Part shown: piece by piece, positions 25,033-54,139 of the stretch
How the letters are laid out: every line of letters starts with the position of its first letter
Numbering within the stretch: the stretch's first letter is position 1
Source: Candidatus Sumerlaeia bacterium
GTDB taxonomy: Bacteria > Sumerlaeota > Sumerlaeia > SLMS01 > JAHLLQ01
Assembly: GCA_028284075.1 (NCBI GenBank)
Contig: JANQSL010000070.1
Location: 41,480-105,479 of the forward strand
Direction: 5' to 3'
Length of the DNA stretch: 64,000 nt
Notes under the pieces: generated by a model
The model's database searches: none
What the model saw: only the letters and a program-made list of their open reading frames with translations
Told to the model about the DNA's origin: nothing
Position numbers and translations under genes: made by a program

Positions 25033-25062
25033 ATGGGAACTCCTTTGCTAACAGGTTCTTTA

Positions 25063-26472: not shown

Positions 26473-26494
26473 ACCCGTTCTCTCCTGTGGTGTT

Positions 26495-27853
26495 TCAAAT
26501 GTTCGTGATGCAATGATCGAGGGCCGCGATCGCGTAGTCGACATCCTGCTTCGTGATGCAGAGGGGTGGCTTGATACGCAGTATATTGCCATAGAGGCCG
26601 CCCTTGCCCGCAAGGACGCCAACATCTTTCAGCCCTTCATGAATTGCCGCGGTTTCATCTTTCGCGGGCTCCTTCGTCCTGCGGTCCCGCACAAATTCCA
26701 TTCCAAGCATCAATCCCATCCCGCGGACATCTCCAATAAGGTTGTGTTTTTCCTGGAGACGCTTCATCTCAGCAAGGAAGTGGCTTCCGGTCTCGAGCGC
26801 GTTTTGCTGCAGCTTCTCTTCGTCAATCACCTCAAGGACTCCAAGCGCCGCCGCCGTACTGACGGGGTTGCCGCCGAATGTGTTGACATGAAGTTTCTGG
26901 CGCATGACATCGGCGATTTCCTTGCGCGTGACAACCGCGGCAATGGGGGCGCCGTTTCCAAGGCTCTTTGCCATGGTCACGATATCGGGCATCACGTCAA
27001 AGTTCTCGAAGCCCCAGTAATGATGACCGGTTCTTCCAAAGCCCGTCTGGACTTCGTCGGCGATGCACAGAGCGCCATGTTCACGTGCTACGGCATAAGC
27101 GGCACCGAGGTACTCTTTTGCGCCATGCGTTGTGCCTCCAACGCCCTGGATCGGCTCCGCAATGAAGGCGGCGAGCCTTGCGGATGTGGAAAACCGGATG
27201 AGGTCACGAAGATCGTCGACACTTTTTTGAGCCACCTCGGACGGCGTTCCGTCGAAAAGACTGCGATAGGGATCGGGGCATGCCGCGTGAAAGATGTGAT
27301 CGCCGGGTGCTGCCGCGTACTTCCAGGTATGGTGTGATGTGAGCCCAAAGGTGATTCCACTCGCTCCGTGGTAGCAGTTTCTCAGCGCCACCACGTCGCG
27401 GCTGCCTGTATAAAGCCGCGCCATGAGAATTGCCAGATCGTTGGCCTCGCTGCCGCTGTTGGTGAAATAAGCGACTTCAAGGTCACCGGGAAGCTTTGCC
27501 GCCAGTTTTTTTCCCAGTTCGGTCACGTTCGGGTTCAGGTAAATGGTTGTTGTGTGCTGTAGCCGCCCCACCTGGTCCTGGACACGTTTCGCAATTGCGG
27601 GATGACAGTGGCCGCAGGAGACGCTGACGATACCGGCAAACAGATCGAGATACCGGCGACCTGTCTCATCAAACAGGTATTGCATCCAACCGTCCGTGAT
27701 CATGACGGGGTTCTTGTAGTAAGTGATGAGACCGGGGCTCAGGTAGGTCTGGCGATCACGAAGTACATCATCCCGTGACGGGCCGCCATAGGGCTTTGGT
27801 GCGAACTCACAGGGAGGCAGAGGGATGTCGAGGGGGGCCAGGGTGGTGGACAT
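26495..27853 (-). CDS. class-III aminotransferase (beta-alanine/3-aminoisobutyrate:pyruvate aminotransferase-like, AGXT2 type)
   Basis: PLP class-III fold (GIVSVSCGHCHP; ADEVQTGFGRTG). Start at the verified ATG encoding MSTTLAPLD. Sits inside the pyrimidine-catabolic operon. Confidence 0.75.
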   Translation of the reverse strand: MSTTLAPLDIPLPPCEFAPKPYGGPSRDDVLRDRQTYLSPGLITYYKNPVMITDGWMQYLFDETGRRYLDLFAGIVSVSCGHCHPAIAKRVQDQVGRLQHTTTIYLNPNVTELGKKLAAKLPGDLEVAYFTNSGSEANDLAILMARLYTGSRDVVALRNCYHGASGITFGLTSHHTWKYAAAPGDHIFHAACPDPYRSLFDGTPSEVAQKSVDDLRDLIRFSTSARLAAFIAEPIQGVGGTTHGAKEYLGAAYAVAREHGALCIADEVQTGFGRTGHHYWGFENFDVMPDIVTMAKSLGNGAPIAAVVTRKEIADVMRQKLHVNTFGGNPVSTAAALGVLEVIDEEKLQQNALETGSHFLAEMKRLQEKHNLIGDVRGMGLMLGMEFVRDRRTKEPAKDETAAIHEGLKDVGVLAGKGGLYGNILRIKPPLCITKQDVDYAIAALDHCITNI

Positions 27854-27860
27854 GTCGATG

Positions 27861-29387
27861 TTACTCCATTTCAGGGAAAGTTTCAGGCGCAACGGCTTCG
27901 GTTCCGGAAAGCGGCTCACGGGTCGGTGACATTTTCCACAACGCAGCATAGGAGACTCCGGAAACCAAAAGTCCAACAAACCATGCGTGTGTATAAAGGT
28001 GAACAAAAAAATCGGGGACGCTGATTTTTTCGGGGCCGATAGCGGCGCTTAGAAAGCCTGGCACGTTCGGCATAATACCGATGACGAGGGCGGTCAGGGC
28101 CCGCCAGTTGAATCCTCGTCCATAGGCATAAACACCGTCGCGCTTATAGAGGTCTTTCGCAACGAGACGAGCACGACGTATCAGGAAATAGTCGATCAGC
28201 ATGACTCCGGCAATAGCGCCGAGAAGGCCGCTGTAACCGATAAGCCACGTAAAAATATAGCCGCCGAGGTCCGTGATGAGTCGCCAGGGCATGATAACGA
28301 TGCCTATGGTGCCAGCGATGAGGCCGCCCGTGCGGAAGCTGATTAACGATGGGCGCAGATTGGAAAAGTCGTTTGCGGGCGAAACGATGTTGGCGGCGAT
28401 GTTTGTTGAGAGCGTTGCCAATGAGAGGGCGAGAAGAGAAACGATCACCACAACGGGATGCTCGAATCGGGCAAGGAGAGCGACCGGATCCCAAATCGCT
28501 TCACCGAACATGACGACAGTCGCGCAGGTTACGGCGATTCCAATGAAACTGAAGAGGGCCATGGTCGGTGGCAAACCGATCAGTTGGCCAAGCATTTGAT
28601 CCCGCTGGCTGCGTGCATACCGCGTGAAGTCGGGAATGTTCAGCGACAACGTCGCCCAGAACCCGACCATGGCCGTCAGGTTGGGCCAAAATGCGGTGAG
28701 GAAGGAAAATTCCCCGGTCTGACTGCCGCGAACTTTTGCAATGACGTCCGCACTGAAGATTGCGCTGAACCCTCCTGCTCGACTGGCGCTCCAGAAGAGC
28801 AGAACAAGGCCGGCAATCAGAAGAAAGGGTGCTGCCAGGTTCTCGAGCCATTTGATGGAGTTGATACCGGCCACAATAATTGCCATGTTGATGGCCCAGA
28901 AAAACAGAAAGCAGACCAGTTGCCCTGCAGTGAGTCCCAGGAAGGCGCCATCTCCCACGGAAGCGGGTTCGAATCCGAACATGACCGCGCACAGCCCGTA
29001 GATGGCTGCACCGCCTATCCACGTTTGGATTCCGAACCAGCCACAAGCCACCAGGGCTCGCATCATTGCGGGGATGTTGGCGCCAAAGACTCCGAAGCTT
29101 GAGCGAAGCAAAACGGGGAATGGGATACCGTACTTCGTTCCAGCGTGGGCGTTGAGTACCATCGGAATGAGAACGACCAGGTTTCCCACGGCAATCGTGA
29201 AGAGTGCCTGCCCGATCGTCATGCCCTGAGAGACAAGACCTGCCGCCAGCATATAGGTGGGAATACACACCGCCATCCCAACCCACAATGCGGCGATGTT
29301 CCACATGCTCCACGTCCGTTTTTCCGGTGGAACAGGAGCGAGGTCTTCATTGTAGAGACCTGCATCATGATGTGGATCTTGCGTCAA
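27861..29387 (-). CDS. NCS1 family nucleobase:cation symporter (uracil/thymine-type permease)
   Basis: Typical NCS1 N-terminus NEDLAPVPPEKRTWSMWN with 12 predicted helices. TTG start. Confidence 0.8.
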   Translation of the reverse strand: MTQDPHHDAGLYNEDLAPVPPEKRTWSMWNIAALWVGMAVCIPTYMLAAGLVSQGMTIGQALFTIAVGNLVVLIPMVLNAHAGTKYGIPFPVLLRSSFGVFGANIPAMMRALVACGWFGIQTWIGGAAIYGLCAVMFGFEPASVGDGAFLGLTAGQLVCFLFFWAINMAIIVAGINSIKWLENLAAPFLLIAGLVLLFWSASRAGGFSAIFSADVIAKVRGSQTGEFSFLTAFWPNLTAMVGFWATLSLNIPDFTRYARSQRDQMLGQLIGLPPTMALFSFIGIAVTCATVVMFGEAIWDPVALLARFEHPVVVIVSLLALSLATLSTNIAANIVSPANDFSNLRPSLISFRTGGLIAGTIGIVIMPWRLITDLGGYIFTWLIGYSGLLGAIAGVMLIDYFLIRRARLVAKDLYKRDGVYAYGRGFNWRALTALVIGIMPNVPGFLSAAIGPEKISVPDFFVHLYTHAWFVGLLVSGVSYAALWKMSPTREPLSGTEAVAPETFPEME

Positions 29388-29421
29388 GAGGTCATCCTTT
29401 TGGGAAGGTTGGTGTGACGGT

Positions 29422-30288
29422 TCAAGGCGCGGTAATAACGTCGTAGGTTTCCGGACGACGGTCTCGATAGAATTGCCAGACGTTGCGGACCTCGCGGATC
29501 ATGTCAAAGTCCATATCCGCGACAACAATATCGTCCTTTGTACGGGAGCCCTCTTCGATGATTTGTCCTCGGGGATTCGCGAAATAGGATGTGCCGTAAA
29601 ACTCTCCGATGTTCCACGGAGCTTCCGTACCGGGTCGATTGATGGCACCGACGAAGTAGATGTTGTTTGCGGCGGCGGCAGGTTGCTCGAGTTTCCAGAG
29701 GTATTCGCTTAAACCGGCAACAGTGGCGGAGGGGTTGAACACGATCTCGGCACCGTTTAGACCGAATGCCCGCCATCCTTCCGGGAAATGGCGATCGTAG
29801 CAGATATAAACACCCACTTTGCCAATCATGGTCTCGAAGACGGGATAACCCAGGTTTCCAGGCTTGAAGTAGAACTTTTCCCAGAAACCAGGCTCACAAT
29901 GGGGAATGTGGATCTTGCGCATTTTCCCCAGATAAGAGCCGTCGGCATCAATTACGATGGATGTGTTATAATAAACGCCTGTGATGTCTTCTTCATAGAG
30001 AGAAGCGACCACCACCATCCGATGCTTTTTGGCAAGGTCCTGCATCAGCTTTGTTGTGGGGCCGTCCGGGATGCGCTCCACCATTTCGTACCACTTGGTG
30101 TTGTGCTCAGCGCAGAAGTAAGGACCGGCAAAGATCTCCTGAGTGCAGACAATCTGTGCACCCTTGCCGGCTGCTTCCTCGATTTGGGCCACCACCCTGT
30201 CCGTCATGGCTTTCTTCACCACGGGAACTTCGCTGGAATCAGAGCACAGCTTCGTTTGTATCAGTGCTCCGCGGACGATTCGGCTCAT
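29422..30288 (-). CDS. nitrilase-superfamily C-N hydrolase, probable beta-ureidopropionase (beta-alanine synthase)
   Basis: Carbon-nitrogen hydrolase catalytic triad context (CTQEIF, KIHIP, ICYDRHFPE). First gene of the operon that contains preTA and dihydropyrimidinase. Confidence 0.7.
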   Translation of the reverse strand: MSRIVRGALIQTKLCSDSSEVPVVKKAMTDRVVAQIEEAAGKGAQIVCTQEIFAGPYFCAEHNTKWYEMVERIPDGPTTKLMQDLAKKHRMVVVASLYEEDITGVYYNTSIVIDADGSYLGKMRKIHIPHCEPGFWEKFYFKPGNLGYPVFETMIGKVGVYICYDRHFPEGWRAFGLNGAEIVFNPSATVAGLSEYLWKLEQPAAAANNIYFVGAINRPGTEAPWNIGEFYGTSYFANPRGQIIEEGSRTKDDIVVADMDFDMIREVRNVWQFYRDRRPETYDVITAP

Positions 30289-30509
30289 GTGTGCATTCTC
30301 CTGTCGTATGGAAACTCCAGCCAGATTTTGTAGAGCACATGGCTACTCCCATCCGGTCAATTCTTTTCCGGGAGAAGCGCTCTGCTCGGGCGAAGTTATG
30401 GAGAAGCCACCCGTGGGGGGAAACCCTGACATGCAGTGGCGGCCATCGGACGAAGAAATGTGAACCGGGGTTGTGATCGCCGGCAGCGAGACCTGATGTT
30501 ATTGTCGGA

Positions 30510-31169
30510 TCATTGTTTGGCCGAAGGCTTCGGCAATGGTTGAATGGCTATATCTTTTTGGGCAGAGAGCGGGGAGTCAGAGCTTTCAACGGTAGCCTCG
30601 AGAATCGCTTCGCACTCAAGCAGCCTTTTTTGAAAGTCCTTCAGGTGGGGATTGGAAGCACGGGTTCTCGCGATGTCGATCGGGGTGACTCCACTGCGTG
30701 TTCTCCGATGGGGATTGCAGCCGAGTTCGAGAAGTGCGCGAACGGTTTCCACGGAACCGAAAATGACAGCATAGTGCAATGCAGTCAGGCCAGTGTCAGG
30801 CTCGGTGTAGTCGATATCCGCTCCCAACGATACTGCGAGCAAAACGACGTCTCTATGGTTGGCTGCGGATGCGTTTTTGAGAACCAGCCATTTTTCGTAG
30901 GCCCCGACCTCATGGTGGAACAGGAGTCTTTTGATCGCGTCGACATCTCCTCCCGATGCTGCTGCCTCGATTTGTTCCTGTACAGAAGCCACGGACTCCT
31001 CTGGTATCGCTTTCAGCTGGAGCCAGGCGTCCACTGTCGTCCAGACCGCCAGGATCACCATCAGGAGGCATCCGAAGGTTGTGATGAATCTGTTTGTCCT
31101 CCTTCGGGCCATGATCTGATCCTTGCGTTGTTTCCCTTCGGTTCGCCGTTGACCTGAAACATCGGTCAT
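30510..31169 (-). CDS. ankyrin-repeat protein with N-terminal TM anchor
   Basis: ANK consensus TALHYAVIFGSVETVRALLELGCNP plus an N-terminal hydrophobic helix. Confidence 0.65.
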   Translation of the reverse strand: MTDVSGQRRTEGKQRKDQIMARRRTNRFITTFGCLLMVILAVWTTVDAWLQLKAIPEESVASVQEQIEAAASGGDVDAIKRLLFHHEVGAYEKWLVLKNASAANHRDVVLLAVSLGADIDYTEPDTGLTALHYAVIFGSVETVRALLELGCNPHRRTRSGVTPIDIARTRASNPHLKDFQKRLLECEAILEATVESSDSPLSAQKDIAIQPLPKPSAKQ

Positions 31170-31519: not shown

Positions 31520-31690
31520 TACGATCTACTCCAGACGGTTTTGTGAACTGACTTTCAAAACAAACCGCTCCGGCGAAACGGCACAGTCGACGGGCGGGAA
31601 GATCTTTCAAGGTTCTTGACTTGTTCGTGTCCGTTGCAGTGGTGTTTGAAACTGCGTTTGTCGTGCTTCAGGCGAGGCTTTCCGAGCCCG

Positions 31691-34072
31691 TTATCCGGGT
31701 GGATCTGCTGTTGGTTGGCCAGTTGGCTGCAGAATGATGACTCTGCCCTGGTCTACTCTCAGTTGATTGTCCTCGCCCGGTGGCTTCGTTGTCGCGATGT
31801 TTCCCCTGTTCGCGCTTGCCTCGACATCCCCTGAAACATGATTGAGCATGATGTTTCCATGGGATGCCGAAACGGAGGCGTCTCCTTCCACATGATTGAG
31901 GGTAATGTTTCCGCGGGACGCCGAGGCTTCGATGTCACCCCTCACGTTCTCTAGCGTGGCGTTTCCGCGGCTGACGGAAACCTGGATGTCGCCTTTTCCA
32001 TGTTTTAAAGTGATATTGCCCTGATCGGCCCTTGCCGACATTTCACCGGAAATGTCGCCCAGGCGGATGTTTCCACTTCCAGTCAGAAAACTGGCGCTTC
32101 CGCTGATTTCATCGACACTGATATCACCTCGGCCCGCCTTCAAGTCTGCGGAATCGTCGCCCCTGGAAAGTGTGATGTTTCCTTGCGAAGCTTTGACTGC
32201 AACGGGGCCGCGAATCTCTCCCAGACTCACATCGCCCCTTCCGGCGCAAATATCCGCCGCTCCCGAAAGATCCTCCAGGGAAATGTCTCCCTGATCGGCC
32301 CCTGCCGAAAGATCACCGGAAATGTTGCCCAGGCGGATGTTTCCTTTTCCAGTCCAGAAGCTTGCGTCTCCACTCATTTCGTTGACACTGATATCACCTT
32401 GGCCTGCCTTCAAGTCTGCGGAATCATGACCTTTGGAAAGTGTGATGTTTCCTCGCGAAGTTTTGACCTCGGCGGGGCCATGAATCTCTCCCAGACTCAC
32501 GTTGCCCCTTCCGGTGTAAACACCGGCTTGTCCCGTGAGATGTTCCAGAGAAATGTTTCCAAGTCCGGTGGACAGATTCACATCGAACTTCATCGGAATG
32601 CTGATGCGAAGCTTGTGGTTCGGATTCTGAAAGCCCCCAAAAAGGCCCAGGTTTAACCCGTCGTGATCGAAACGAAAGCGTTGGAATGCTGATTCATGCT
32701 CCTTTTCAGCTTTCGTTGATTCATCGAAGACCACATCCAGATGCGTTTCGACCCGAATTTGAGATTCGGATCCCCTGACAATCTCGAGGTTACCCCTGCT
32801 GATCCTGACGTTCAGTGATCCTCCCGGTCCCACGTCGAACGAGCGATAGGGACGTTCTTCAAGATCCTGTGATTCGCCGTTGGCCGACATCCTCAGGTCT
32901 TCTGCCATTGAGCCTTCAGGAGTCGATGGGTTATCCTGCGCTGAATCGTTCGCAAGATCGTCCGGCGGAGAAGTGGATGCTCCTCCCGGCAGAAGAACAA
33001 GGGCTGCGGCGAACACGGCCGCTCCGGCTCCAAAGGAGAGTTTCGTGGCCCGATGGAGCCGTGCATCGCGAATGCGGCAAAGACGACGGGCAAGGGGATG
33101 GGCCTGTTCCGCGAGGCCAGGTGTGGCAGCGAAGGGTATTCTCTTTTGACGTACATGTGCCACACGAGCTGCGTCGAGAAGGGTGGAACAATAGAGGTCA
33201 CGTGTCGTCAGTCGTTGGGCGAGCAGCATGTCATCACAGCACTCCTCGCGTACGCGGCGTAGTGAAGCCGCGGTCGCCCAGAAGAGCGGATGGAACCACC
33301 AAACCGCGCCAAGCAGGAGTTGGATCCAGGCCCAGGCAACATCCCGTCGGCTGTGATGCGCAAGTTCATGTGCCAGCACAGTGCGCAATGCAGGGAGATC
33401 AAGGGACACAGCCAGGTTTCGAGGCAGAAGAATTCGTGGACGCCAGCAGCCGAAAGCGATGGGGGAAGCCGCATTGTCGGAAACCAGCAGGCGCGGCAGC
33501 CTTGTCATTCCAAGTTGGCGGGCAGTCTCACTGTAGAGTGACAAAAGATTGCCATCCGTTGCCGGTGAAGCACCTGCAATTAAGCGTTTCAAGCGGAGCC
33601 AGTTGAGAGCGATTCGACTCAAAGCGAATAATACGCCCGCCAGATAGAAAAGAAAGAACCAGGATTTCCATGCAGCGTCTGTATGACCGAGGGTCGGCTG
33701 ATCGACACGATGAGATTCAATGACCGGGTTTGCCGAGAGCGAACCCGATGCGTCCGTTCGTGCAATGGCGGTTTCCGTGGCCTCCAATGGAGTAACGGTG
33801 GGGCTCGTGGTCGCTGCCTTGCTCCCCGGGATGGATAGCGTTGCAGGTTGAGCCCATGTGAAGCGGTTAAAGACTCCCGTTGGCAGTACGCCCAGTGGTG
33901 GCATCGCGAACTTCATCAGTACCAGGACGAGCAGCCAGTAGCGCAGTGGCGATGAGAGTCGCGGGAGTGCCTTCACGATGAACAGCAGGGCCATTGCGAC
34001 GATCGTGGCCTGCAAGAAGACGGGCACAATGATGGTCCACCAGGCGTTGGCGATGTGAGTGAGTGTTTCCAT
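31691..34072 (-). CDS. BlaR1-like M56 metallopeptidase signal transducer with C-terminal beta-helix-like repeat domain
   Basis: N-terminal TM helices, HEXXH motif AHELAHHSRRD and a downstream Glu region. C-terminal ~20 copies of ~22-aa GNIxL/GDIS repeats. Start at the ATG (MET...) 14 nt after the blaI stop. Confidence 0.8.
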   Translation of the reverse strand: METLTHIANAWWTIIVPVFLQATIVAMALLFIVKALPRLSSPLRYWLLVLVLMKFAMPPLGVLPTGVFNRFTWAQPATLSIPGSKAATTSPTVTPLEATETAIARTDASGSLSANPVIESHRVDQPTLGHTDAAWKSWFFLFYLAGVLFALSRIALNWLRLKRLIAGASPATDGNLLSLYSETARQLGMTRLPRLLVSDNAASPIAFGCWRPRILLPRNLAVSLDLPALRTVLAHELAHHSRRDVAWAWIQLLLGAVWWFHPLFWATAASLRRVREECCDDMLLAQRLTTRDLYCSTLLDAARVAHVRQKRIPFAATPGLAEQAHPLARRLCRIRDARLHRATKLSFGAGAAVFAAALVLLPGGASTSPPDDLANDSAQDNPSTPEGSMAEDLRMSANGESQDLEERPYRSFDVGPGGSLNVRISRGNLEIVRGSESQIRVETHLDVVFDESTKAEKEHESAFQRFRFDHDGLNLGLFGGFQNPNHKLRISIPMKFDVNLSTGLGNISLEHLTGQAGVYTGRGNVSLGEIHGPAEVKTSRGNITLSKGHDSADLKAGQGDISVNEMSGDASFWTGKGNIRLGNISGDLSAGADQGDISLEDLSGAADICAGRGDVSLGEIRGPVAVKASQGNITLSRGDDSADLKAGRGDISVDEISGSASFLTGSGNIRLGDISGEMSARADQGNITLKHGKGDIQVSVSRGNATLENVRGDIEASASRGNITLNHVEGDASVSASHGNIMLNHVSGDVEASANRGNIATTKPPGEDNQLRVDQGRVIILQPTGQPTADPPG
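32021..32560. repeat. 2 x 270-bp near-identical direct tandem duplication inside the BlaR1-like gene
   Basis: Direct comparison of 32021-32290 vs 32291-32560 shows ~90% identity, in frame (90 aa per unit). Confidence 0.7.
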
Positions 34073-34085
34073 CGGTGTTCTCCTC

Positions 34086-34520
34086 TTAGTCGCGGTTCTT
34101 GCTTTCCCGCTCACGTCTTTTGAGCTCTTCAAGAAGATGCTCCAACTGGTCGATTTCCTCGGAACTGGGTGCCCGCGTTGCGAAGAGAGAGGAGACCATC
34201 GCGATGCTGTCCCCGCCGAAGATTCGCTCCAGCAGATCACCAACCAGGCGTCGGTGGGTTGGTCCGGGCTTGCGTGTTGCCTGAAAAACCAGCGCCTTTC
34301 CCTGACCCGATTTGCGTCGCTTGACGAATTTCTTTCGGCGGAGACGTTCCAGGAGTGTGAGCACGGTTGTGGGTGCCATCGGTCTGCGGTCGGCGAGTCC
34401 CTCGACAATCTGTCGGGCGGTGCATTCTCCGTGCTGCCACAGATAGGTGAGCACATCCAGTTCCGCGTCGGGAAGGTTTTCCCGTATCTGGTTGCGATTG
34501 GGTTTGGGGGAATTCGGCAT
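34086..34520 (-). CDS. BlaI/MecI/CopY-family transcriptional repressor
   Basis: Winged-helix N-domain LDVLTYLWQHGECTARQIVEGL...MAPTTVLTLLERL, typical of Penicillinase_R. Confidence 0.8.
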   Translation of the reverse strand: MPNSPKPNRNQIRENLPDAELDVLTYLWQHGECTARQIVEGLADRRPMAPTTVLTLLERLRRKKFVKRRKSGQGKALVFQATRKPGPTHRRLVGDLLERIFGGDSIAMVSSLFATRAPSSEEIDQLEHLLEELKRRERESKNRD

Positions 34521-34580
34521 GGAAGCGATTTACTCCGATTGGCGAGACACTATTTTTACGCTTGTCGAAGAGCAAGCCTA

Positions 34581-34598
34581 TTTTTACCTGTGTAAAAA
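34581..34598. promoter_or_regulatory. candidate BlaI operator palindrome TTTTTAC-ctgt-GTAAAAA
   Basis: Perfect 7-bp inverted repeat ~60 nt upstream of the blaI-family gene. An extra TTTTTAC half-site sits at 34554-34560. Resembles the TACA/TGTA-type operators of this family. Confidence 0.35.
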
Positions 34599-34746
34599 TA
34601 TCGTGGCTTTCAGGCATGGCTACATGAGCGTTCCCAATTGGGTGCTCCTGTGAAAAGGGAGTGCTCTTGCGTTGTTCACCCGTTGGTTTTCAAGGACTTG
34701 CCGTTAAGCTGTTTAGCCCTCTCTCCTCCTGACCTTCAGAAGGCGC

Positions 34747-35379
34747 CTAGCCTCCCATGAGATCCTTAAGCACCTTCTCGAGCTGCTTGACATCGAATTG
34801 TCCGTTCATCGCGCCGCCGAGGAGTTGCCCGATCTGGTGGCCGTTGGCTTCCGGGTCAATGTCGGCGACGATGTTCATAAGGACCATCTCGCCCTGCTCC
34901 ATGACGGAGATGAATCCGCCGCGAATGTATTTGTCGTCTGATCGTATCAGAACATTCACGTTCTCATCGTCTTCGGCGACGCGCACGACGGAAACCCATC
35001 CGTCGTCACGGAGATCCTCGACGATTTTCTTTCCGTTTTCGATGATGGCACTGTCGATCTCCGGCGACTCGAAGACTCGAACCTGAACCAGATGCAGGTC
35101 GATACCATCAAGAAGCTGTTTGAGTTGTGCGGCTTCCGGACTTTCTCCCGAGGCGCTGTCGGCGGCACCGAGGGCCGTTGCGATGGCAAGGCGGATGAGA
35201 GGTTCCGTGACGTTAACTTCAACTTCTGGTACAAGGTTCTCCGTGGCGAGAGATTCTGGTGTGAGAGACACAAATCCAGGGTGGGAATCCACCGGTTCCG
35301 TGGACTCCGCGAATGCGACCGCGGTACAGAGGCACAAAGTGACTGCAAAAACCGCAAATGTGGATTTGAAGAGCTTCAT
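34747..35379 (-). CDS. secreted hypothetical protein (~210 aa), possibly DUF4252-like
   Basis: Signal peptide MKLFKSTFAVFAVTLCLCTAVAFA. C-terminal segment resembles the C-terminal domain of the upstream BlaR1-like protein (DPEA...IGxLLG block). Confidence 0.5.
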   Translation of the reverse strand: MKLFKSTFAVFAVTLCLCTAVAFAESTEPVDSHPGFVSLTPESLATENLVPEVEVNVTEPLIRLAIATALGAADSASGESPEAAQLKQLLDGIDLHLVQVRVFESPEIDSAIIENGKKIVEDLRDDGWVSVVRVAEDDENVNVLIRSDDKYIRGGFISVMEQGEMVLMNIVADIDPEANGHQIGQLLGGAMNGQFDVKQLEKVLKDLMGG

Positions 35380-35502
35380 GAACAGCAACCTTTCCGAGTT
35401 CTGAGATGTGTGCGTTTCGAATTCCTTTGTGTCGCAAGGGAACTTCAAATGACTTTGGATGTCGGTGAATCGTCCTTTCCACATGATCCGCATGTGAGAG
35501 AA

Positions 35503-37233
35503 TCAGTCGGACTGCAGCGCCTCTGCCTTGTTGGCGAAGCGTCTGCAGAGCCCGATGAGATGACCGATACGTTCGCCGGCCTCGTCCGGGTCGAATCTTC
35601 CCGATACGCGAAACGTCACAACAAGATCGCGGCTCTCAACAACGCCGACAAGGAGACGGATGAGATCACCCTCTGTTTTTGCATAGACTCTGATGTTCTT
35701 ATCGCGGACCTGTACCACAGGAGTCATTCCTTCCACGGCCCTGAGTAATTCAAAGACGGCGTCGGCTTCTTCCTGCCTGACAGATTTGGCGCCCGCTTTC
35801 TTTCCAAAAACGGAAAACGAAAGGCTCCCAATGTTGACTTCAGTGAGCGTTTGACGAATGATATCCTTTGAAACGGGGAGCTGAAGATTGCGAAGTGAGA
35901 TTCCGTTCTCTGATATCGCGAGTCGCATACTGGGATTCTTGATTCGAATAAAGGTTTCGGGTTCATAGGTGGCGATATCCCTTGTTTCGGATTTCGTCAG
36001 CATAATGACCTGGGAATCGCGCGTTCCGACTCCGGCAGACCGTGCCTCGGCATTGTCACTGAGGGGCTGGAACACGAGCCAGCCAGCCAGTACCAGAAGC
36101 GGTGTTCCGATAATCGCGGGTCCGTGAGAGTTTCTTTTCCCTGATTTGGGACTGGTGGAAGCGACAATACGCCGGATCCTTCCAAGCAACGGTCCGTCCG
36201 TGGCAGCGAGAGCCATGCGCTCGGCGTGGCGGAGCTCCTCAAGGCGCATAAGCGCGGTGGCGTACGTGCGGGGTTCTCCTTCCATGGCGAGTACCAGATC
36301 GTCACAACAATGCTCACGCTCGGTGCGAATACGCGCAGAAACCCACCAGACCGCCGGATGGAAGAAAAGAACCGTTTCAGCGCATGTCTGGACAACGTTC
36401 CACATATAGTCATGTCGACGGATATGAGCGAGCTCGTGAAGAAGAACGGCGCTAAGCTCGTCCGGCTTCAAACCGGTGATGGAGCAGGGTGGGAGAAGAA
36501 TAACGGGCCGTAGCCATCCGATCATGGAGGGTCCGGCAATCCGGGCGGACTGAAGCAGGCGGACATTCCGGCGTATGCGCAGGCGTGCTTTCAGCTGGCA
36601 GAGAACAACGGTCAGTCCCTCCGGACACGGCTCGACGTTGTCATGACACAGGCGTCGCGCGCGAAGAAACCCGCCGGTGTGCAGGCAGGTGAGCAGAACA
36701 ACGCCAGTAATCCATCCGGCGGCGAGCCATGGAAGCCACGGACTGATGCGTTTCGATGCGGCGTCGATTTTCTGCCCGAGGGTGGGCTCGACATCGGTTT
36801 GTGGAAATGCATCGGGAGACGCCAGATTCTCCGCAATGAAGCCGACAAAGGCGGCCACTCCGTTTTTGATGACACGTACATAGGCGGAATCATCCGGTCC
36901 TGTTGAAAGTGTGTGCGTCTCATTCCGCAAGTTCTCTTCCGGGACAGTCTTGCCGTTGGGCGTCTTGTCGGGCCATCCCGTTGCTGCGGCGACCATGTCA
37001 TCGTCGATTCTCTCTGATACCCGAAGGGCGGTGACGGCAGGACAGGCGAGCATTGCCAGCAGGGCGATGAGGCTGACGGCATAGCGTGCGCTTGCGCTGT
37101 GGTTGTGAAGAAGATGGACGGCGGTTCTCCACAAGACTGCAATCAACGCTCCCTGCCAGAGGAAATGCAGAACACAGAGTCCGATAAGAAGCAGTGCCTT
37201 GATGAGCGGAGTGTTTTGCAACAGGGTGCTCAT
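35503..37233 (-). CDS. BlaR1-like M56 metallopeptidase signal transducer (second copy) with novel C-terminal extracytoplasmic domain
   Basis: HEXXH LHELAHIRRHD with multiple TM helices. Start ATG overlaps the blaI stop (ATGA-type coupling). Confidence 0.8.
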   Translation of the reverse strand: MSTLLQNTPLIKALLLIGLCVLHFLWQGALIAVLWRTAVHLLHNHSASARYAVSLIALLAMLACPAVTALRVSERIDDDMVAAATGWPDKTPNGKTVPEENLRNETHTLSTGPDDSAYVRVIKNGVAAFVGFIAENLASPDAFPQTDVEPTLGQKIDAASKRISPWLPWLAAGWITGVVLLTCLHTGGFLRARRLCHDNVEPCPEGLTVVLCQLKARLRIRRNVRLLQSARIAGPSMIGWLRPVILLPPCSITGLKPDELSAVLLHELAHIRRHDYMWNVVQTCAETVLFFHPAVWWVSARIRTEREHCCDDLVLAMEGEPRTYATALMRLEELRHAERMALAATDGPLLGRIRRIVASTSPKSGKRNSHGPAIIGTPLLVLAGWLVFQPLSDNAEARSAGVGTRDSQVIMLTKSETRDIATYEPETFIRIKNPSMRLAISENGISLRNLQLPVSKDIIRQTLTEVNIGSLSFSVFGKKAGAKSVRQEEADAVFELLRAVEGMTPVVQVRDKNIRVYAKTEGDLIRLLVGVVESRDLVVTFRVSGRFDPDEAGERIGHLIGLCRRFANKAEALQSD

Positions 37234-37234
37234 T

Positions 37235-37636
37235 TCAATCCTCGGTGAGCTGATCAAGAAGCGAGCGGATTTCCTTCAGTTCCTCGGGAGAGGTTTGTTT
37301 GCTGTTAAGTGCGTTGAGAATAAGGTTCGCGGCTGAGCCGTTGAACGCGCGGTTGATGAGATCGTTGACAAGCCGCTTGCGTGTTTGCTCCGGAGGATGG
37401 GCGGCCTTGTAGATATGGGTACGCTGTTCCGTGTTTCTGACAACCAGGCCCTTGTCGGTCATGATCTGCATGAACTTCAGTGTTGTCGTGTAGCTGCGTT
37501 CTTCGGAATCGGGGAGTTGTTCGTGAACTTCGCGGACGGTGGCCGAACCGCGGTCCCAAAGAATTCGGAGGATCGCGAGTTCCGCGTCGGTTGGTCTCGG
37601 GAGGGGCACAGAGGTCATGCGGGTGCTTCCGTTCAC
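37235..37636 (-). CDS. BlaI/MecI/CopY-family transcriptional repressor (second copy)
   Basis: AELAILRILWDRGSATVREVHEQL...YTTTLKFMQIMTDKGLV winged helix. Confidence 0.8.
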   Translation of the reverse strand: MNGSTRMTSVPLPRPTDAELAILRILWDRGSATVREVHEQLPDSEERSYTTTLKFMQIMTDKGLVVRNTEQRTHIYKAAHPPEQTRKRLVNDLINRAFNGSAANLILNALNSKQTSPEELKEIRSLLDQLTED

Positions 37637-37660: not shown

Positions 37661-37678
37661 CTACGAGATTTTTCGTAG
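37661..37678. promoter_or_regulatory. candidate operator palindrome CTACGA-gatttt-TCGTAG
   Basis: 6-bp inverted repeat ~25 nt upstream of the second blaI-family gene. A further TTCGTAG copy at 37694-37700 and a CGAAgaaaTTCG palindrome at 37686-37697. Confidence 0.35.
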
Positions 37679-37803
37679 TTGTCAACGAAGAAATTCGTAG
37701 ATTGGGTCCGGAATACCTCCTATCAATCCCAAGCCCTTTTTTTTCAGTTATCCATGGAGTGTAATGCTGCATGGAGCCAAGTGTGTCTGATCCATGGAGC
37801 GGG

Positions 37804-39803: not shown

Positions 39804-40643
39804 TTATTCTTTTGTTTTATGGATGAAATCCATCACGAGGTTGCGGGAAACGGCCAGGCGATAGTTGCGGGTGGACCGAATATCATCCATGGGCGCCAGT
39901 TCCTCCATCAGTACCACGGCGGCTTCTTCCGGTGAGGCACCTCCGGCAATGGCTTTCTCGGTCTTTAGGGCGCGCAACGTCGTGGGTCCGACGGATCCCC
40001 AGGCGAGTTTGGTTTCATGGTCTGTCCTGATGCCGGCCACAACAACCTTGCTGATAGCCTGTGCAGCCCGTGTTCCGACCTTGCGGTAGTAATGGCGCGC
40101 ACCGTCCGGTGGTGCCGGTAGAATGATTTCTGAAATCAGTTCGTCTGAACGGAGGATCGTTTTGCGATAGCCGGTATAAAACTCGTTGATGGAAATAACG
40201 CGCTCACCGCTGCTGCTAAGGAGACGAATGTTCGCCTCGTACACAAAAAGCGCGGGGACCGTGTCGGCGGCGGGAGATCCGTTGACGATATTGCCGACAA
40301 GCGTTCCCCGGTTTTGAATCTGGAGGGCGCCGGTGACTTTCGCGGATTCCACCAGCAAAGGATAGCGTTCACACACAACGGGGTGATGACGAACGTCGGT
40401 GTAGGTTGCCAGAGCTCCGATGATCAGCGAACCGTCGGACTCACGAATACCTCGCCAGTCGCCTGCGAGTTGATGCAGGCTTTGAACAGGACAGGGTGCC
40501 AGAAGTCCTTCGTTTAAGAGGACCATGACTTCCGTGCCGCCCGCTATCGGCAGCAGGTTCTCAATCGCAGCCTTTTGCTCCAGAGCCTCCTCAACACCAA
40601 CAGGAACGTACGCGCGATACCGGACAGGATTGGATGCGATCAT
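39804..40643 (-). CDS. xanthine dehydrogenase-family FAD-binding (medium) subunit
   Basis: CO-dehydrogenase-flavoprotein-like fold (IAGGTEV...). Start at the verified ATG MIASNPVRY, overlapping the 2Fe-2S subunit stop. Confidence 0.75.
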   Translation of the reverse strand: MIASNPVRYRAYVPVGVEEALEQKAAIENLLPIAGGTEVMVLLNEGLLAPCPVQSLHQLAGDWRGIRESDGSLIIGALATYTDVRHHPVVCERYPLLVESAKVTGALQIQNRGTLVGNIVNGSPAADTVPALFVYEANIRLLSSSGERVISINEFYTGYRKTILRSDELISEIILPAPPDGARHYYRKVGTRAAQAISKVVVAGIRTDHETKLAWGSVGPTTLRALKTEKAIAGGASPEEAAVVLMEELAPMDDIRSTRNYRLAVSRNLVMDFIHKTKE

Positions 40644-41119
40644 TCCGGGTGTCCTGTTTTTGCGGCCTGCTCCATCGCGCGAAAGATCGCGCTGTATCCG
40701 GTGCAGCGGCAGAGGTTGCCTTCCAGAGCTTCGCGCAGGCCGCCGGGAGCCCGGTCGGGATGACGGAGGTGATGAACACCTGCCATAACCATTCCCGGTG
40801 TGCAGATACCACACTGGGCACCACCACATTCGAGAAACGCCTGTTGCACGGGGTGCAATATTTCCTCGCCGTTTTCCGCGACGCGGGCAAGTCCCTCCAC
40901 TGTTTCAATTTCAGCTCCCCCGGCCTGCATGACAGGAACCATGCAACTCATAACCAGCTCATCATTCATGATAACCGTACACGCCCCGCACTCGCCTTCT
41001 CCGCATCCATACTTTGTTCCCGTCAGCCGGCAGCTTTCACGTAAAACATCCAACAGCGGCATCATGGGATGCGCGTCGGTTTCATACTCGCGTCCGTTGA
41101 TCGTCATGCGGATAGTCAT
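40640..41119 (-). CDS. xanthine dehydrogenase-family [2Fe-2S] (small) subunit
   Basis: Plant-type ferredoxin cysteines CGEGECGACTV and second-cluster cysteines CGGAQCGICTPG. Confidence 0.8.
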   Translation of the reverse strand: MTIRMTINGREYETDAHPMMPLLDVLRESCRLTGTKYGCGEGECGACTVIMNDELVMSCMVPVMQAGGAEIETVEGLARVAENGEEILHPVQQAFLECGGAQCGICTPGMVMAGVHHLRHPDRAPGGLREALEGNLCRCTGYSAIFRAMEQAAKTGHPE

Positions 41120-43296
41120 TTGAGGATGTCCTCGGGGCGGATTGGGATCGAAACAATGTTCTGTCCCGTCGCATGAGCCACGGCGTTTGCAATCGCGGCG
41201 GGCGGACCATCCATTGGAAGTTCGCCAACACCTTTTGAGCCGAACGCTCCGATGGGATTGTGATGCTCAACAAATTCCACCACCATGTCCGGACCGTCAG
41301 CGGATGTGGGAATAATGTAGTTGGTGACGCGTGTATTTTGCATAAGTCCCTCTCTCAGCACGACGTCCTCACATGTTGCCCAGCCTGCTCCCTGTGCCAT
41401 TCCTCCCTCAACCTGGCCCACTGCAAGGACCGGATTGATGACGCACCCGATATCATAGATGCCCCACATTTTCTCGACACGAAGTTCCGCAGTCACGCTG
41501 TCGAGGACGATTTCCGCGACGTTGCACCCCCAGGAGTACGCACCATATGCGCAGCCCTGGTATGTTTCCTCGTTCCAGACCAGTCCCGGCGGCGGTTCGT
41601 AACGCGCCTCGGCACGAAGAGAATCCATCGCGGCCGCTTCGGCAACATCGCGACCATTGAGTTTCTCTCGCATCTGGCGTGCTGCTTTCTCAACAAGGCC
41701 GCCGACGATGGAGCAGGTGCGCGAGGCAACGGTCGGACCGCTGTCCGGGACCGCGCCGGTCTCCGGCTTGCGAAATCGAATTTGCTCAATGTTGATACCA
41801 AGGCCTTCGGCGGCGATTTGAGCAAAAACGGTTTCCGTTCCCTGGCCAATTTCCGTCGACGAGACCTGGATTTCCACGGTTCCGTCGGACTGCGCTTCAA
41901 GGGCTACGACACTACTGAGGTAAACTTCACCGGAACCCGTGAAGCCGGTACCGTGATAAAAAACGGAAAGCCCCATTCCATGTCCTGACCCACATGGGGA
42001 GCTTTGCTGTTTCGCGCGGTAGTCAGACAGCTCCAGAGCCCGATCAACGATGTGGTCGAGTTCCGGATCCTCTTCGACAATCTGAGAAGTGGGTAACACG
42101 TCGCCACGCTGCAAAAAGTTTTTCCTCCGCAGCTCGATGGGGCAGATGCCGAGGAGTTGCGAGAGACGATCGAGATGACGCTCGATGGCAAACTCACTCT
42201 GAGGTGCCCCGAAGCCGCGGAATGCTCCATAGGGAGGAGAATTAGTGAACCAGCACAGGCCATCCATTTTTGCCGCAGGCCAGCGATAGGGACCGCCACT
42301 ATGGAGAAGGCCGCGTGAAAGAACAACAGGCGACAATGTCAGATAGGCGCCACCGTCTATATGAAAGGTGACCTCGATGCCCTTGAAAACTCCCTCTCTT
42401 GTACATGCCGTGCGAATGCGTGTGATCGAAGGATGGCGTTTTGTCGAGCACGCCATATCCTCGGCGCGGTCGTATATCAGGCGAACCGGTTTGCCCCCGG
42501 CCTTGCGCGACAGCAGCGCAGTGTGAATGGCCACCATGCTGGGGAATTCCTCCTTGCCGCCAAAGCCGCCACCTGTCGTTTCCTGAACGACACGGACCTG
42601 ATCATCCCGCTCAAGAGCAAAAGCGTTTTTGACCGCTTTGTGAACGTAATAGGGGCACTGATTTGATCCGTGCAGAACAACGGTTTCATTCTCCCACCAT
42701 GCAATGAATCCGTTTGGCTCTATATAGACGTGCTCCTGAGCTCCGGTGGCGTATTCTCCTTCAAAAACAATGTTTTCTCCGGAAAAGGCCTGCTCTGTAT
42801 TTCCATGCCGAATCGCAAGATCCTTAAGGACACGCCCCTGTTCCATTTCGAAGATGCCGGGATCCTTCTCATAAACAATTTCAATGGCGCGTGCGGCTTC
42901 CTGCACAAGGCCCGGATCCTCATGGGCAATGAGGAGAATGGCTTCCTGATGATGCCGAACGATACTATCCACCAACGCAGGCTGCTCGTTTGTAATCAAA
43001 GCGACTTCGTTGACCGGCAGATCCTTTGCCGTGACGATTGTGAACTCATTCCATGGAAAACCTTCGGGGAAGCGGATGTCCCTGACTCGACCTGCGGCAA
43101 TGGTGGTGCGAATCGTTCGTCCCGTCAGGGCTCCTTCCACATGCATGTCGTCAATATAGCGCGAGCGACCGGTAAGCTTGTGGGCACCTTCGCGACGGGT
43201 CACGGAACGACCCACATACCGTAGTTCATGATGTTCGGGAGGCGAAACTGTCATGTGCTCTCGAGAAAACTCTCCATCGGGACCTGAATGTTTCAT
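41116..43296 (-). CDS. xanthine dehydrogenase-family molybdopterin-binding (large) subunit
   Basis: Aldehyde oxidase/xanthine dehydrogenase a/b hammerhead and MoCo domains. Alternative start at 43254. Confidence 0.8.
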   Translation of the reverse strand: MKHSGPDGEFSREHMTVSPPEHHELRYVGRSVTRREGAHKLTGRSRYIDDMHVEGALTGRTIRTTIAAGRVRDIRFPEGFPWNEFTIVTAKDLPVNEVALITNEQPALVDSIVRHHQEAILLIAHEDPGLVQEAARAIEIVYEKDPGIFEMEQGRVLKDLAIRHGNTEQAFSGENIVFEGEYATGAQEHVYIEPNGFIAWWENETVVLHGSNQCPYYVHKAVKNAFALERDDQVRVVQETTGGGFGGKEEFPSMVAIHTALLSRKAGGKPVRLIYDRAEDMACSTKRHPSITRIRTACTREGVFKGIEVTFHIDGGAYLTLSPVVLSRGLLHSGGPYRWPAAKMDGLCWFTNSPPYGAFRGFGAPQSEFAIERHLDRLSQLLGICPIELRRKNFLQRGDVLPTSQIVEEDPELDHIVDRALELSDYRAKQQSSPCGSGHGMGLSVFYHGTGFTGSGEVYLSSVVALEAQSDGTVEIQVSSTEIGQGTETVFAQIAAEGLGINIEQIRFRKPETGAVPDSGPTVASRTCSIVGGLVEKAARQMREKLNGRDVAEAAAMDSLRAEARYEPPPGLVWNEETYQGCAYGAYSWGCNVAEIVLDSVTAELRVEKMWGIYDIGCVINPVLAVGQVEGGMAQGAGWATCEDVVLREGLMQNTRVTNYIIPTSADGPDMVVEFVEHHNPIGAFGSKGVGELPMDGPPAAIANAVAHATGQNIVSIPIRPEDILK

Positions 43297-43466
43297 CCTC
43301 GTGCGACGGCAGGTCTCGTCAACCGATATTGCCGTAGGCTTGTTCCAAACTGGCCGGCGAGGATCGCACGACAGCGTTTCTTTGCTTGCAGCGAGGCGCC
43401 TGTGGTTCTCATCCTCGTAGTCTTAACGCTGCCCGGCAAAGCCGGGCCAACAAAGGATATTATTGA

Positions 43467-44648
43467 ATGAGTGTGCTTCCCGCTCCCCTTAATCCCCCTG
43501 ATCGTGTACTTCTCGGTCCCGGCCCCAGCGATGTCTCCTCTCGTATTCTGCGAGCCCTTTCGGCACCGACCATCGGCCACCTGGACCCACATTACCTGGA
43601 GCTGATGGATGAGGTTCGGTCAATGCTGCGAGAGGTTTTCCGGACAGAAAACGAGCTGACCCTCGCCGTTTCCGCGACGGGTATGGCGGGAATGGAGTGC
43701 ATCATCTCGAACCTGCTGGAGTGTGGGGACGAGATGATTGTTTGCATCAACGGTGTTTTCGGCGGGCGGATGGCGGATATGGCCTCCCGGCAGGGAATCG
43801 TTGTCCACAAACTCGAGGCGGAATGGGGCCGGGTTTTTGATCTCGCGCAGATCGAAGAGGCCTTCAAGAGGCACCCCGGTGCCAAGGCGATCGGTATCGT
43901 GCATGCCGAAACCTCGACGGGCGCTCACCAGCCTATGGATGGAATTGGAGAACTCGCCCACCGGAATGGCTCCCTTCTGATTGTGGATGCGGTCACTTCT
44001 CTCGGGGGTGTGGATGTTCGTATCGACGACTGGGGGGTCGATGCGTGTTACAGCGCGACACAGAAGTGCCTGTCCTGTCCTCCGGGGCTGGCCCCCGTGA
44101 CGTTTTCAAAGCGAGCCGAGGAGAAGATGGCGGGTCGGACATCAAAGTGTGTCTCCTGGTACCTCGACGTGAGTATGGTGCGCGACTACTGGGGGAGTGC
44201 GCGTTCTTATCATCATACCGCACCCATTAATATGACGTATGCTCTTCGCGAAGCGTTATTGATCATTTTGGAGGAGGGGCTTGATGTTCGATTTGCCCGG
44301 CATGAACGGAATCATCGTGCTCTTCGGGCGGGTCTTGAAGCGATGGGTGTCTCCTATATCCCGCAGCATTCGTTAACGACACTCAATTGTATTGGCATTC
44401 CCGACGGGGTGGATGACGTCGTCGCGCGCAAACATCTGCTGGAGCAGTATGGGATCGAGATTGGCTCGGGCCTGGGGCCCTTCAAGGGCAGAGCCTGGCG
44501 AATCGGCCTGATGGGCGAGTCCAGTAGTGAAAGGAATGTAATGCTTGTTTTGAGTGCGCTCGAGTCGGCACTCACGAGACAGAATGTTTCCTTCAAGGAA
44601 GGCGTCGGACCGGCGGCGGCACAGGCAGTTTATGGCTCTCGCGACTGA
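43467..44648 (+). CDS. class-V aminotransferase (serine-pyruvate/alanine-glyoxylate type; candidate ureidoglycine-glyoxylate aminotransferase PucG-like)
   Basis: AGT-family fold with PLP-Lys region TQKCL. Divergent from the XDH genes and followed by the uricolytic genes. Confidence 0.7.
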
Positions 44649-45879: not shown

Positions 45880-45966
45880 AGCGCTCCATGCTTCCAAAGC
45901 CCGGTATTTTCGCTTGCCGAGTAATGATGGGTTGAGTCTGATCAATTTTTCAATGGAGGCCGTTTT

Positions 45967-53955: not shown

Positions 53956-54139
53956 CCACTTGACACGTATTGCGTCTTCGCATCGTTTGCGGAATCCGAT
54001 TCGCAGAGGAACGACGGTGCATGATGCGCTGATGCATCCTGCAACCGGTTTCACAGCTTGTTTTTGCCATGGCCCGGACCTCGCGCGCGTTTTCGTTGAA
54101 GGCAAAACAGCCTTCGAATTGAAAAACGGAGGTCTTTCC

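Follow-up and report, generated by a model that had tools for sequence, protein, structure and literature searches.

A non-beta-lactam BlaI/M56 module in a Candidatus Sumerlaeia bacterium, in which the C-terminal domain of the membrane protease is homologous to the exported DUF4252 protein encoded next to it

The locus described here lies in a 64,000-nucleotide stretch of contig JANQSL010000070.1 (hereafter the window) from the assembly GCA_028284075.1 of a Candidatus Sumerlaeia bacterium, and consists of five genes arranged head-to-tail, all on the minus strand: a repressor gene (blaI-2), a gene for an M56 membrane metalloprotease signal transducer (originally termed 'BlaR1 copy 2'), a gene for an exported DUF4252 protein, a second repressor gene (blaI-1), and a second M56 gene. 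This report is concerned mainly with the first three of these, and in particular with the relationship between the C-terminal domain of the transducer and the exported protein encoded downstream of it. The blaI-2 gene (37235..37618) encodes a BlaI/MecI/CopY-family winged-helix repressor of 127 amino acids (aa) when read from the ATG at 37618, with an alternative GTG start at 37636, and its stop codon lies 1 nucleotide (nt) ahead of the ATG of the transducer gene (35503..37233; 576 aa from that ATG, in an open reading frame, or ORF, that reaches beyond it to an upstream TTG at 37257). A spacer of 123 nt (35380..35502) then separates the stop codon of the transducer gene from the signal-peptide start of the exported protein (34747..35379; 210 aa from MKLFKST). 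The first-pass annotation of this DNA covered the transducer and exported-protein genes, leaving blaI-2 outside its coordinates, and both of the sequences that it quoted were located on the minus strand.

Comparison of the 178-aa C-terminal segment of the transducer with the exported protein by BLASTP yielded an alignment of 34.3 bits, with 27% identity over 148 columns and an E-value of 3e-7; shuffled versions of the exported protein gave a mean of 12.5 bits (standard deviation 4.2, maximum 26.6), and none of the 500 reached 34.3. An hhalign comparison of the two domains, conducted on single sequences, was likewise significant (E 6.4e-5 over 132 columns). When the search space was extended to the 699 stop-to-stop ORFs of at least 50 aa found in six frames of the window, as a correction for a whole-window scan, the sole non-self phmmer match of each domain was the other (E 1.8e-5 and 1.8e-4), and everything else lay at E>1. 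The initial claim that the sensor C-terminus resembles the adjacent secreted protein was therefore upheld, and the block of sequence on which it had been based is indeed shared, but the similarity extends beyond that block to essentially the whole domain (aa ~425-561 of the transducer, at 35551-35961, against aa 51-188 of the exported protein, or ~140 aa). Furthermore, the alignment is collinear through the hydrophobic leader, such that the fourth transmembrane (TM) helix and sensor domain of the transducer match the signal peptide and domain of the exported protein.

The exported protein matches DUF4252 (PF14060) at 43.2 bits (E 5.4e-11, with a gathering cut-off of 23.9 bits) over aa 81-177 (34849-35139) and positions 28-120 of the 125-position hidden Markov model (HMM), in agreement with a precomputed PF14060 annotation of the same protein. 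The C-terminus of the transducer (aa 489-551) matches the same model weakly and below that cut-off, at 15.5 bits and E 0.02, and this is the only Pfam hit of the protein outside its protease region. The registers of the Pfam and BLASTP alignments agree, in that residue 551 of the transducer and residues 177/178 of the exported protein both fall at HMM positions 120/121, and the strongest motif common to the two domains, DP[ED]xxGxxIGxLxG, lies just beyond the end of the model. An earlier guess at DUF4252 thus holds outright for the exported protein and, for the sensor domain, finds a sub-threshold match in the same register; membership of the latter in the family would rest on transitive homology to its neighbour. 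We regard it as confirmed, at the level of sequence, that the C-terminal domain of the transducer is a homolog, and indeed a paralog, of the domain of the exported protein. Because the two share the motif given above and neither has another detectable relative, they are probably nearest to one another in a strongly diverged branch of the DUF4252 family.

The alternative that this similarity reflects chance or composition, with the C-terminal domain being unrelated to DUF4252, could draw upon the sub-threshold Pfam match and upon a database-wide search with the sensor domain, which missed the neighbour at E<=0.001 as a consequence of a search space of 1.8 billion sequences. Against it stand the absence of any shuffled sequence that reached the observed score, the reciprocal and unique matches among the 699 ORFs (E 1e-5 to 1e-4), the consistent Pfam register, and the length and collinearity of the alignment, hydrophobic leader included. 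On the shuffle, window-search and register statistics it was rejected as extremely improbable.

The transducer itself matches Peptidase_M56 (PF05569) at 113.7 bits against a cut-off of 31 (E 1.2e-32) over aa 167-343, and this protease core (36205..36735, minus strand) retains both of the gluzincin motifs as they are defined in PMC9834060 and in the PvmS preprint: HEXXH (HELAHIRRHD, including the downstream Asp) at aa 266, with the HELAH zinc motif at 36424-36438, and EXXXD (EHCCD) at aa 307. Kyte-Doolittle hydropathy places TM helices at about aa 10-33, 52-70, 166-184 and 373-391. The TM2-TM3 loop (95 aa, aa 71-165) is acidic and predicted to be periplasmic, and the TM3-TM4 loop (185 aa) is rich in Lys and Arg and carries the protease domain. 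The protein is thereby predicted to have the four-helix topology of BlaR1, with its protease domain in the cytoplasm, and with the 95-aa loop and a C-terminal domain of 185 aa on the extracytoplasmic side. TM4 (aa 373-391; 36061..36117, minus strand), which is collinear with the downstream signal peptide, would export the C-terminal periplasmic sensor domain, a divergent DUF4252-like domain at aa 400-576 (35506..36036, minus strand). An AxA-type motif (SDNAEA/RS, aa 392-399, ~36037-36060) is found after TM4. In Staphylococcus aureus BlaR1, signal peptidase sheds the sensor domain just after the last TM helix, at Gly331 (PMC9834060); by analogy, and speculatively, the tethered DUF4252 domain might also be shed as a soluble protein.

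The description of the locus as a 'BlaI-BlaR1 module' proved correct as regards a BlaI/M56 module and incorrect as regards BlaR1. The BlaI-2 protein matches Penicillinase_R (PF03965) at 97.9 bits against a cut-off of 22.6 (E 6e-28), with NCBIfam BlaI/CopY matches that fall under their equivalog cut-offs. The NCBIfam model blaR1_generic scores only 88 bits against a cut-off of 400 on the transducer, where it aligns with the protease core alone (model positions 110-282 of 585), and the C-terminus of the transducer displays no transpeptidase or beta-lactamase Pfam match, no SxxK/KTG motifs and no penicillin-binding protein (PBP)-type sensor. Since it has no PBP-type domain, the module is, to judge from its predicted domain content, not a beta-lactam sensor.

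The signal peptide of the exported protein (aa 1-24, MKLFKSTFAVFAVTLCLCTAVAFA followed by ES; 35308-35379) is canonical, with a positive n-region, a hydrophobic core and an AFA/ES junction. By topology, both DUF4252 domains should face the periplasm. We know of no function for DUF4252. The start codon of the exported protein is ambiguous: the ORF can be read from as far upstream as 35493, in-frame ATGs lie in the spacer at 35493 and 35484, and the automated gene call placed the start at an upstream ATG, for a product of 245 aa in which 35-38 non-signal aa precede the signal peptide; a Shine-Dalgarno-like GGAAAGG is also present in the spacer, 9 nt before the ATG at 35379. With an upstream start the hydrophobic segment would serve as a signal anchor, and the DUF4252 domain would be exported either way.

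The ORFs of the transducer and the exported protein share one reading frame and lie only 12 nt apart, separated by a TGA and a further 9 nt (35494-35505), an arrangement that could have resulted from a sequencing error, a pseudogenising stop or a read-through stop within what is really one gene, encoding an M56 protein with two tandem DUF4252 domains. However, the second ORF opens with a canonical signal peptide preceded by GGAAAGG; the hypothetical fusion would acquire a fifth TM helix that put its second domain in the cytoplasm; TGA serves as a stop codon elsewhere in the locus, for example in blaI-2; and identical M56 and DUF4252 proteins are on record from both the NCBI contig and a Logan assembly of SRR20820731. 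A single interrupted gene is thus very improbable, and was rejected on the basis of the signal peptide and of the topology that such a fusion would have.

Upstream of blaI-2 lie two operator-like dyads in tandem, with their centres 22 bp apart. Dyad B (37661..37678), located 43-60 nt upstream of the blaI-2 ATG, is a perfect palindrome, CTACGA-N6-TCGTAG, and dyad A (37683..37700), which reads CTACGA-N6-TCGTTG on the coding strand, differs from it by 1 mismatch; a TTGACA hexamer overlaps the 3' arm of dyad A, the more distal of the two. The core TACGA-N4-8-TCGTA occurs once in the 64 kb, against an expectation of 0.06. Both dyads are candidate operators that BlaI-2 presumably binds. No copy of the blaI-2 dyad was found in the 123-nt gap between the transducer and exported-protein genes, and a scan for promoters and terminators was uninformative, with counts no higher than in shuffled sequence. 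The transducer and the exported DUF4252 gene are likely to be co-transcribed.

The locus is best explained as a three-gene, non-beta-lactam BlaI/M56 switch operating by regulated proteolysis, in the order blaI-2, M56 transducer and exported DUF4252 protein. According to this model, BlaI-2 bound to the tandem dyads upstream of its own gene would repress the operon; a periplasmic or envelope cue acting upon the DUF4252 sensor would activate the M56 protease; and the active protease would cleave BlaI-2, so that the operon became derepressed. Given likely co-transcription, the level of the free DUF4252 copy, exported to the same compartment as the sensor, would rise upon induction, and the protein could then pair with the sensor domain, or compete for the 95-aa loop or for the cue, and thereby set or feed back upon the switch. 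The extracellular loop EL1 of S. aureus BlaR1 sits docked in the sensor domain until signalling displaces it (PMC9834060), and a free paralog could compete for just such a surface. We tentatively favour a role for the free copy as a periplasmic partner or modulator (or decoy) of the tethered sensor, induced together with the operon, as a possible reading that still falls short of an even chance.

The collinearity of TM4 with the signal peptide, together with the presence of two same-frame ORFs 12 nt apart, points to an origin by gene fusion, in which a sensor-less M56 core would have become joined to a downstream secreted DUF4252 gene and the signal peptide of the latter would have become TM4. 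Such a fusion would have taken place in an ancestor with more than one DUF4252 gene, and the free copy reads, from its sequence, as an ancient paralog of the sensor domain. By Rosetta-stone logic, the fused architecture would also imply that M56 and DUF4252 proteins work together.

Many features of this arrangement correspond to those of BlaR1/BlaI and MecR1/MecI in S. aureus and Bacillus licheniformis: an M56 gluzincin motif set of the form HEXXH...E(xxxD) with four TM helices; an extracytoplasmic C-terminal sensor together with a long extracytoplasmic TM2-TM3 loop (PMC9834060); an adjoining gene for a cognate winged-helix repressor, with dyad operators (here operator-like) upstream; and a sensor that belongs, together with an exported protein of its regulon, to one fold superfamily (PMC5957439), the regulon being a presumed one in the present case. 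The differences are that the sensor here is DUF4252-like rather than a PBP or class D beta-lactamase domain, that the gene order is blaI followed by M56, that the exported paralog lies immediately downstream and in the same direction rather than being divergently transcribed, and that the cue is not expected to be a beta-lactam. A third gene that is co-transcribed with sensor and repressor, and that modulates the switch, is found in the mecR1-mecI-mecR2 operon of methicillin-resistant S. aureus (PMC3406092); MecR2, however, differs from the DUF4252 protein in that it is not exported but acts on MecI within the cytoplasm, as an anti-repressor, and in that it bears no relationship to the sensor domain. 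BlaIR pairs that lack a beta-lactam sensor are also known, and those of Mycobacterium tuberculosis (Rv1845c/Rv1846c), M. abscessus and Pseudomonas aeruginosa (PvmSR) regulate non-beta-lactam functions (bioRxiv 10.64898/2026.08.03.742534). The present module resembles them in combining an M56 protein and a BlaI-family repressor without a beta-lactam sensor, but while their M56 proteins stop after the protease and TM core, the one described here continues into a 185-aa extracytoplasmic domain and is accompanied by a free paralog of it.

A structural relationship between sensor and exported protein is in itself not new to this class of systems. In the canonical system, the BlaR1 sensor has structural homology to class D beta-lactamases, and the exported proteins whose expression is induced, BlaZ and PBP2a, fall within the same acyl-transferase superfamily as the sensor (PMC5957439). 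For this reason, the proposal that the pairing constitutes a 'new twist' on the BlaR/BlaI paradigm was overstated. It was overstated also because free DUF4252 paralogs beside a signalling pair were already present in operons of Bacteroidota that encode extracytoplasmic-function (ECF) sigma factors (PMC11410844, PMC10101095). In Porphyromonas gingivalis, PG0214 (an ECF sigma factor), PG0215 (a putative anti-sigma factor) and PG0216 (DUF4252) lie together, and a further such operon is formed by PG0985-0987 (PMC10101095, PMC10434189, PMC9045371); in Prevotella bivia RS05890-05910, three co-regulated DUF4252 genes flank a single sigma factor gene (PMC11410844). As at the present locus, exported DUF4252 proteins (one to three in those operons, where they are also co-regulated with it) are encoded alongside a transmembrane pair of signalling proteins that governs a transcription factor, and from these operons, with their up to three copies, it is evident that placing sets of exported DUF4252 paralogs beside a transmembrane transcription switch is a habit of the family. 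The signalling pair in Bacteroidota consists of a sigma and anti-sigma factor, whereas here it consists of a repressor and an M56 protease; no fusion of DUF4252 to a transducer has been reported from the Bacteroidota ECF operons; and the DUF4252 sequences described here are too divergent to be retrieved from the Bacteroidota family by sequence search. What is new at this locus is the type of switch (M56/BlaI) with which DUF4252 is associated, as well as the presence of one copy fused to the transducer.

A broader proposal, which we consider doubtful, is that DUF4252 may be a general periplasmic co-sensor that forms hetero-pairs of paralogs for two kinds of proteolytic transmembrane switch, ECF anti-sigma factors in Bacteroidota and M56/BlaI at this locus, where one copy would have become the tethered sensor by fusion and the co-induced free copy would act as a soluble decoy that competes for the loop or the cue and so provides negative feedback and adaptation. 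To our knowledge, feedback through a soluble decoy has been described for no BlaR-type system.

Models of the two domains were produced with AlphaFold2 (AF2), using an alignment that consisted of the two sequences alone, and were poor, with predicted local distance difference test (pLDDT) values of 50.7 and 50.3. Both place their core elements in the order helix, long strand, helix, three to four strands and C-terminal helix, and both have DcrB as their top structural match, followed by PA1624, SciW, the PknH ectodomain, Mog1, PA0094, TiME, LpqN, MTC28 and PsbP. Foldseek agrees, recovering DcrB and TiME at probabilities of 0.97-1.0 with weak E-values. Because the two models share one two-sequence alignment, their agreement on a fold is not independent. 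Both domains may tentatively be assigned to a Mog1/PsbP/DcrB-like alpha/beta sandwich; the resemblance to envelope domains of this kind (DcrB, PA1624, LpqN, TiME and the PknH ectodomain) is one of fold only, at 7-15% identity and for low-confidence models, with no sequence relationship shown, and searches of Protein Data Bank sequences with both domains returned chance-level matches only.

The principal rival to a partner or modulator role is that the free DUF4252 protein stands to the sensor as BlaZ does to BlaR1, that is, as a regulated output that binds, sequesters or processes the envelope-derived ligand of the sensor without making direct contact with it. The evidence from homology and operon structure is the same for either reading, and the paralogy would mirror the superfamily that beta-lactamase and PBP2a share with the sensors of BlaR1 and MecR1 (PMC5957439). 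The free DUF4252 gene is moreover the only non-regulatory gene in the unit, which makes it the obvious candidate for an output, and proteins with DcrB/LpqN/PsbP-type folds are often binders of ligands or lipids in the envelope. On the other hand, DUF4252 has no known ligand and no known catalytic motif; the multi-copy DUF4252 genes of Bacteroidota, which accompany sigma and anti-sigma factors with no other obvious sensor, fit a sensory or accessory role at least equally well; and BlaI-2 may control distant genes that lie outside the window. We judge an output role to be somewhat unlikely, although it is the strongest of the alternatives to the partner reading.

The distribution of the module bears on whether the pairing has a function at all. 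The M56 C-terminal domain had no match in a database of 5.8 billion proteins, in which the exported protein recovered only itself, such that the transducer and exported protein are both singletons; an exhaustive phmmer search of 1.84 billion representatives returned no credible relative of the sensor domain beyond itself. One candidate from the latter search, a 3151-aa protein with Big_3_5 Ig repeats (P0121), was judged spurious: a 58-aa portion of the sensor domain (its aa 54-111) matched it seven times (E 4.6e-5), in a beta-strand repeat. The full-length transducer had 5804 database matches. Among the matches listed, its best relatives align with the protease core only (44-54% identity over 33-40% of length), PF14060 is absent from the M56 relatives (best 120 of 5804), and none of the 36 closest M56 homologs was found by phmmer and HMM searches to possess a DUF4252-like C-terminus. 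A synteny scan of species genomes, based on the neighbouring xanthine dehydrogenase (XDH) large subunit, found only a 43%-identical homologue in an unrelated Eisenbacteria metagenome-assembled genome (MAG), and a scan of metagenome contigs with the two-domain alignment gave no match; these protein, genome and metagenome searches therefore identified no orthologue or analogue of the BlaI, M56-DUF4252 and free DUF4252 triplet elsewhere.

In the two nearest M56 relatives among the matches listed, the order blaI, M56 and a small exported or outer-membrane protein recurs, with the third gene encoding a GWxTD domain protein at locus L003 (7806-8369) and an outer-membrane beta-barrel at locus L004 (7324-7830), a sign that BlaI/M56 modules of this kind often include a gene for an exported third product. 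Those third genes are unrelated to the accompanying M56 C-termini, and the DUF4097 sensor of the neighbouring module at the present locus, which serves as an internal control, has no free paralog in the window; on both grounds, the pairing of a sensor with its free paralog is specific to the blaI-2 module, and not a trait general to its M56 relatives. The C-terminal domains appear to have been swapped widely on a conserved M56 core. Many M56 relatives of ~700-720 aa, from Acidobacteriota-type MAGs, carry tandem 'IHGVTPxF' repeats at the C-terminus, with no Pfam match in the precomputed list, and others carry HEAT repeats there. At locus L003, the 931-aa protein P0002 (5001-7796) displays two separate Peptidase_M56 matches, with a HELAH-containing core near its C-terminus and weak Poly_export/SLBB matches, and may be a duplicated or fused M56 protein.

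These observations would also accommodate an evolutionary leftover, in which tandem duplication or fusion created the pair, the two proteins are now independent, and their adjacency has no functional meaning. The low identity (27%), the singleton arrangement with no conserved counterpart, the unrelated third genes of the nearest M56 relatives, and a 123-nt gap that could hold an independent promoter are all compatible with such an origin. Yet both ORFs are intact, tightly spaced and on the same strand, with products exported to the same compartment; the genes have stayed adjacent for as long as it took their products to diverge to 27% identity, which points to selection; and DUF4252 is tied to signalling operons elsewhere. 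Adjacency without function consequently appears unlikely.

Several of the results described above also weigh against the proposed three-gene switch and its partner role: (i) when matched directly to Pfam, the sensor domain scores under the gathering threshold; (ii) a 123-nt gap separates the transducer and exported-protein genes and the promoter and terminator calls were uninformative, which makes their co-transcription no more than likely; (iii) the searches described found no orthologous or analogous locus that could lend a functional link comparative support; (iv) the third genes of L003 and L004 are unrelated to their M56 C-termini; (v) the structural models are poor (pLDDT ~50) and mutually dependent; and (vi) paralogs that have drifted to 27% identity have had time for their functions to diverge.

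The remaining two genes of the block form a second BlaI/M56 module, which consists of blaI-1 (34086-34520, minus strand) and a second M56 gene (31691-34072, minus strand) whose 793-aa product has a long DUF4097 'toastrack' repeat domain as its C-terminus (Pfam E 1e-16). The palindrome associated with blaI-1, a perfect 9-bp inverted repeat (TATTTTTAC-N4-GTAAAAATA, 34579-34600), differs from the blaI-2 dyads, and the two modules thus look insulated from each other. The core of the blaI-1 palindrome, TACCTGTGTA, is 1 mismatch from TACAnnTGTA, which we take to be the box of BlaI/MecI/CopY repressors. A terminator-like hairpin with a T-run lies at 31564-31582 (minus strand), ~110 nt past the stop codon of the second M56 gene; since it is the only such gene-end site on the minus strand of the five-gene block, transcription could in principle run through the whole block as a single unit. 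Both modules are flanked by blocks of nucleobase/ureide-type catabolic genes (23557-31169 and 39804-46716), one with a cytosine/purine permease, a CN-hydrolase, an allantoinase-like amidohydrolase and an aldehyde dehydrogenase, and the other with XDH/CO-dehydrogenase-like molybdenum-enzyme subunits, an aminotransferase, an M20 peptidase and a cupin. Farther along the window, a 646-aa protein encoded on the plus strand (53960-55900) matches the animal haem peroxidase family (PF03098) very strongly and over the full length (E 8e-152).

Environmental bacteria contain abundant M56/BlaI pairs, and beyond the beta-lactam sensors almost nothing is known of the cues that such pairs detect. Although it represents a single locus from one metagenomic bacterium, the blaI-2 module provides a concrete case in which the sensor domain has been swapped for DUF4252, and the gene fusion ties that family to transmembrane signalling, in keeping with its unexplained place in the ECF sigma operons of Bacteroidota. 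If the free paralog does modulate the tethered sensor, the arrangement would constitute a simple feedback design for one-component proteolytic switches, and would offer a first functional handle on DUF4252.

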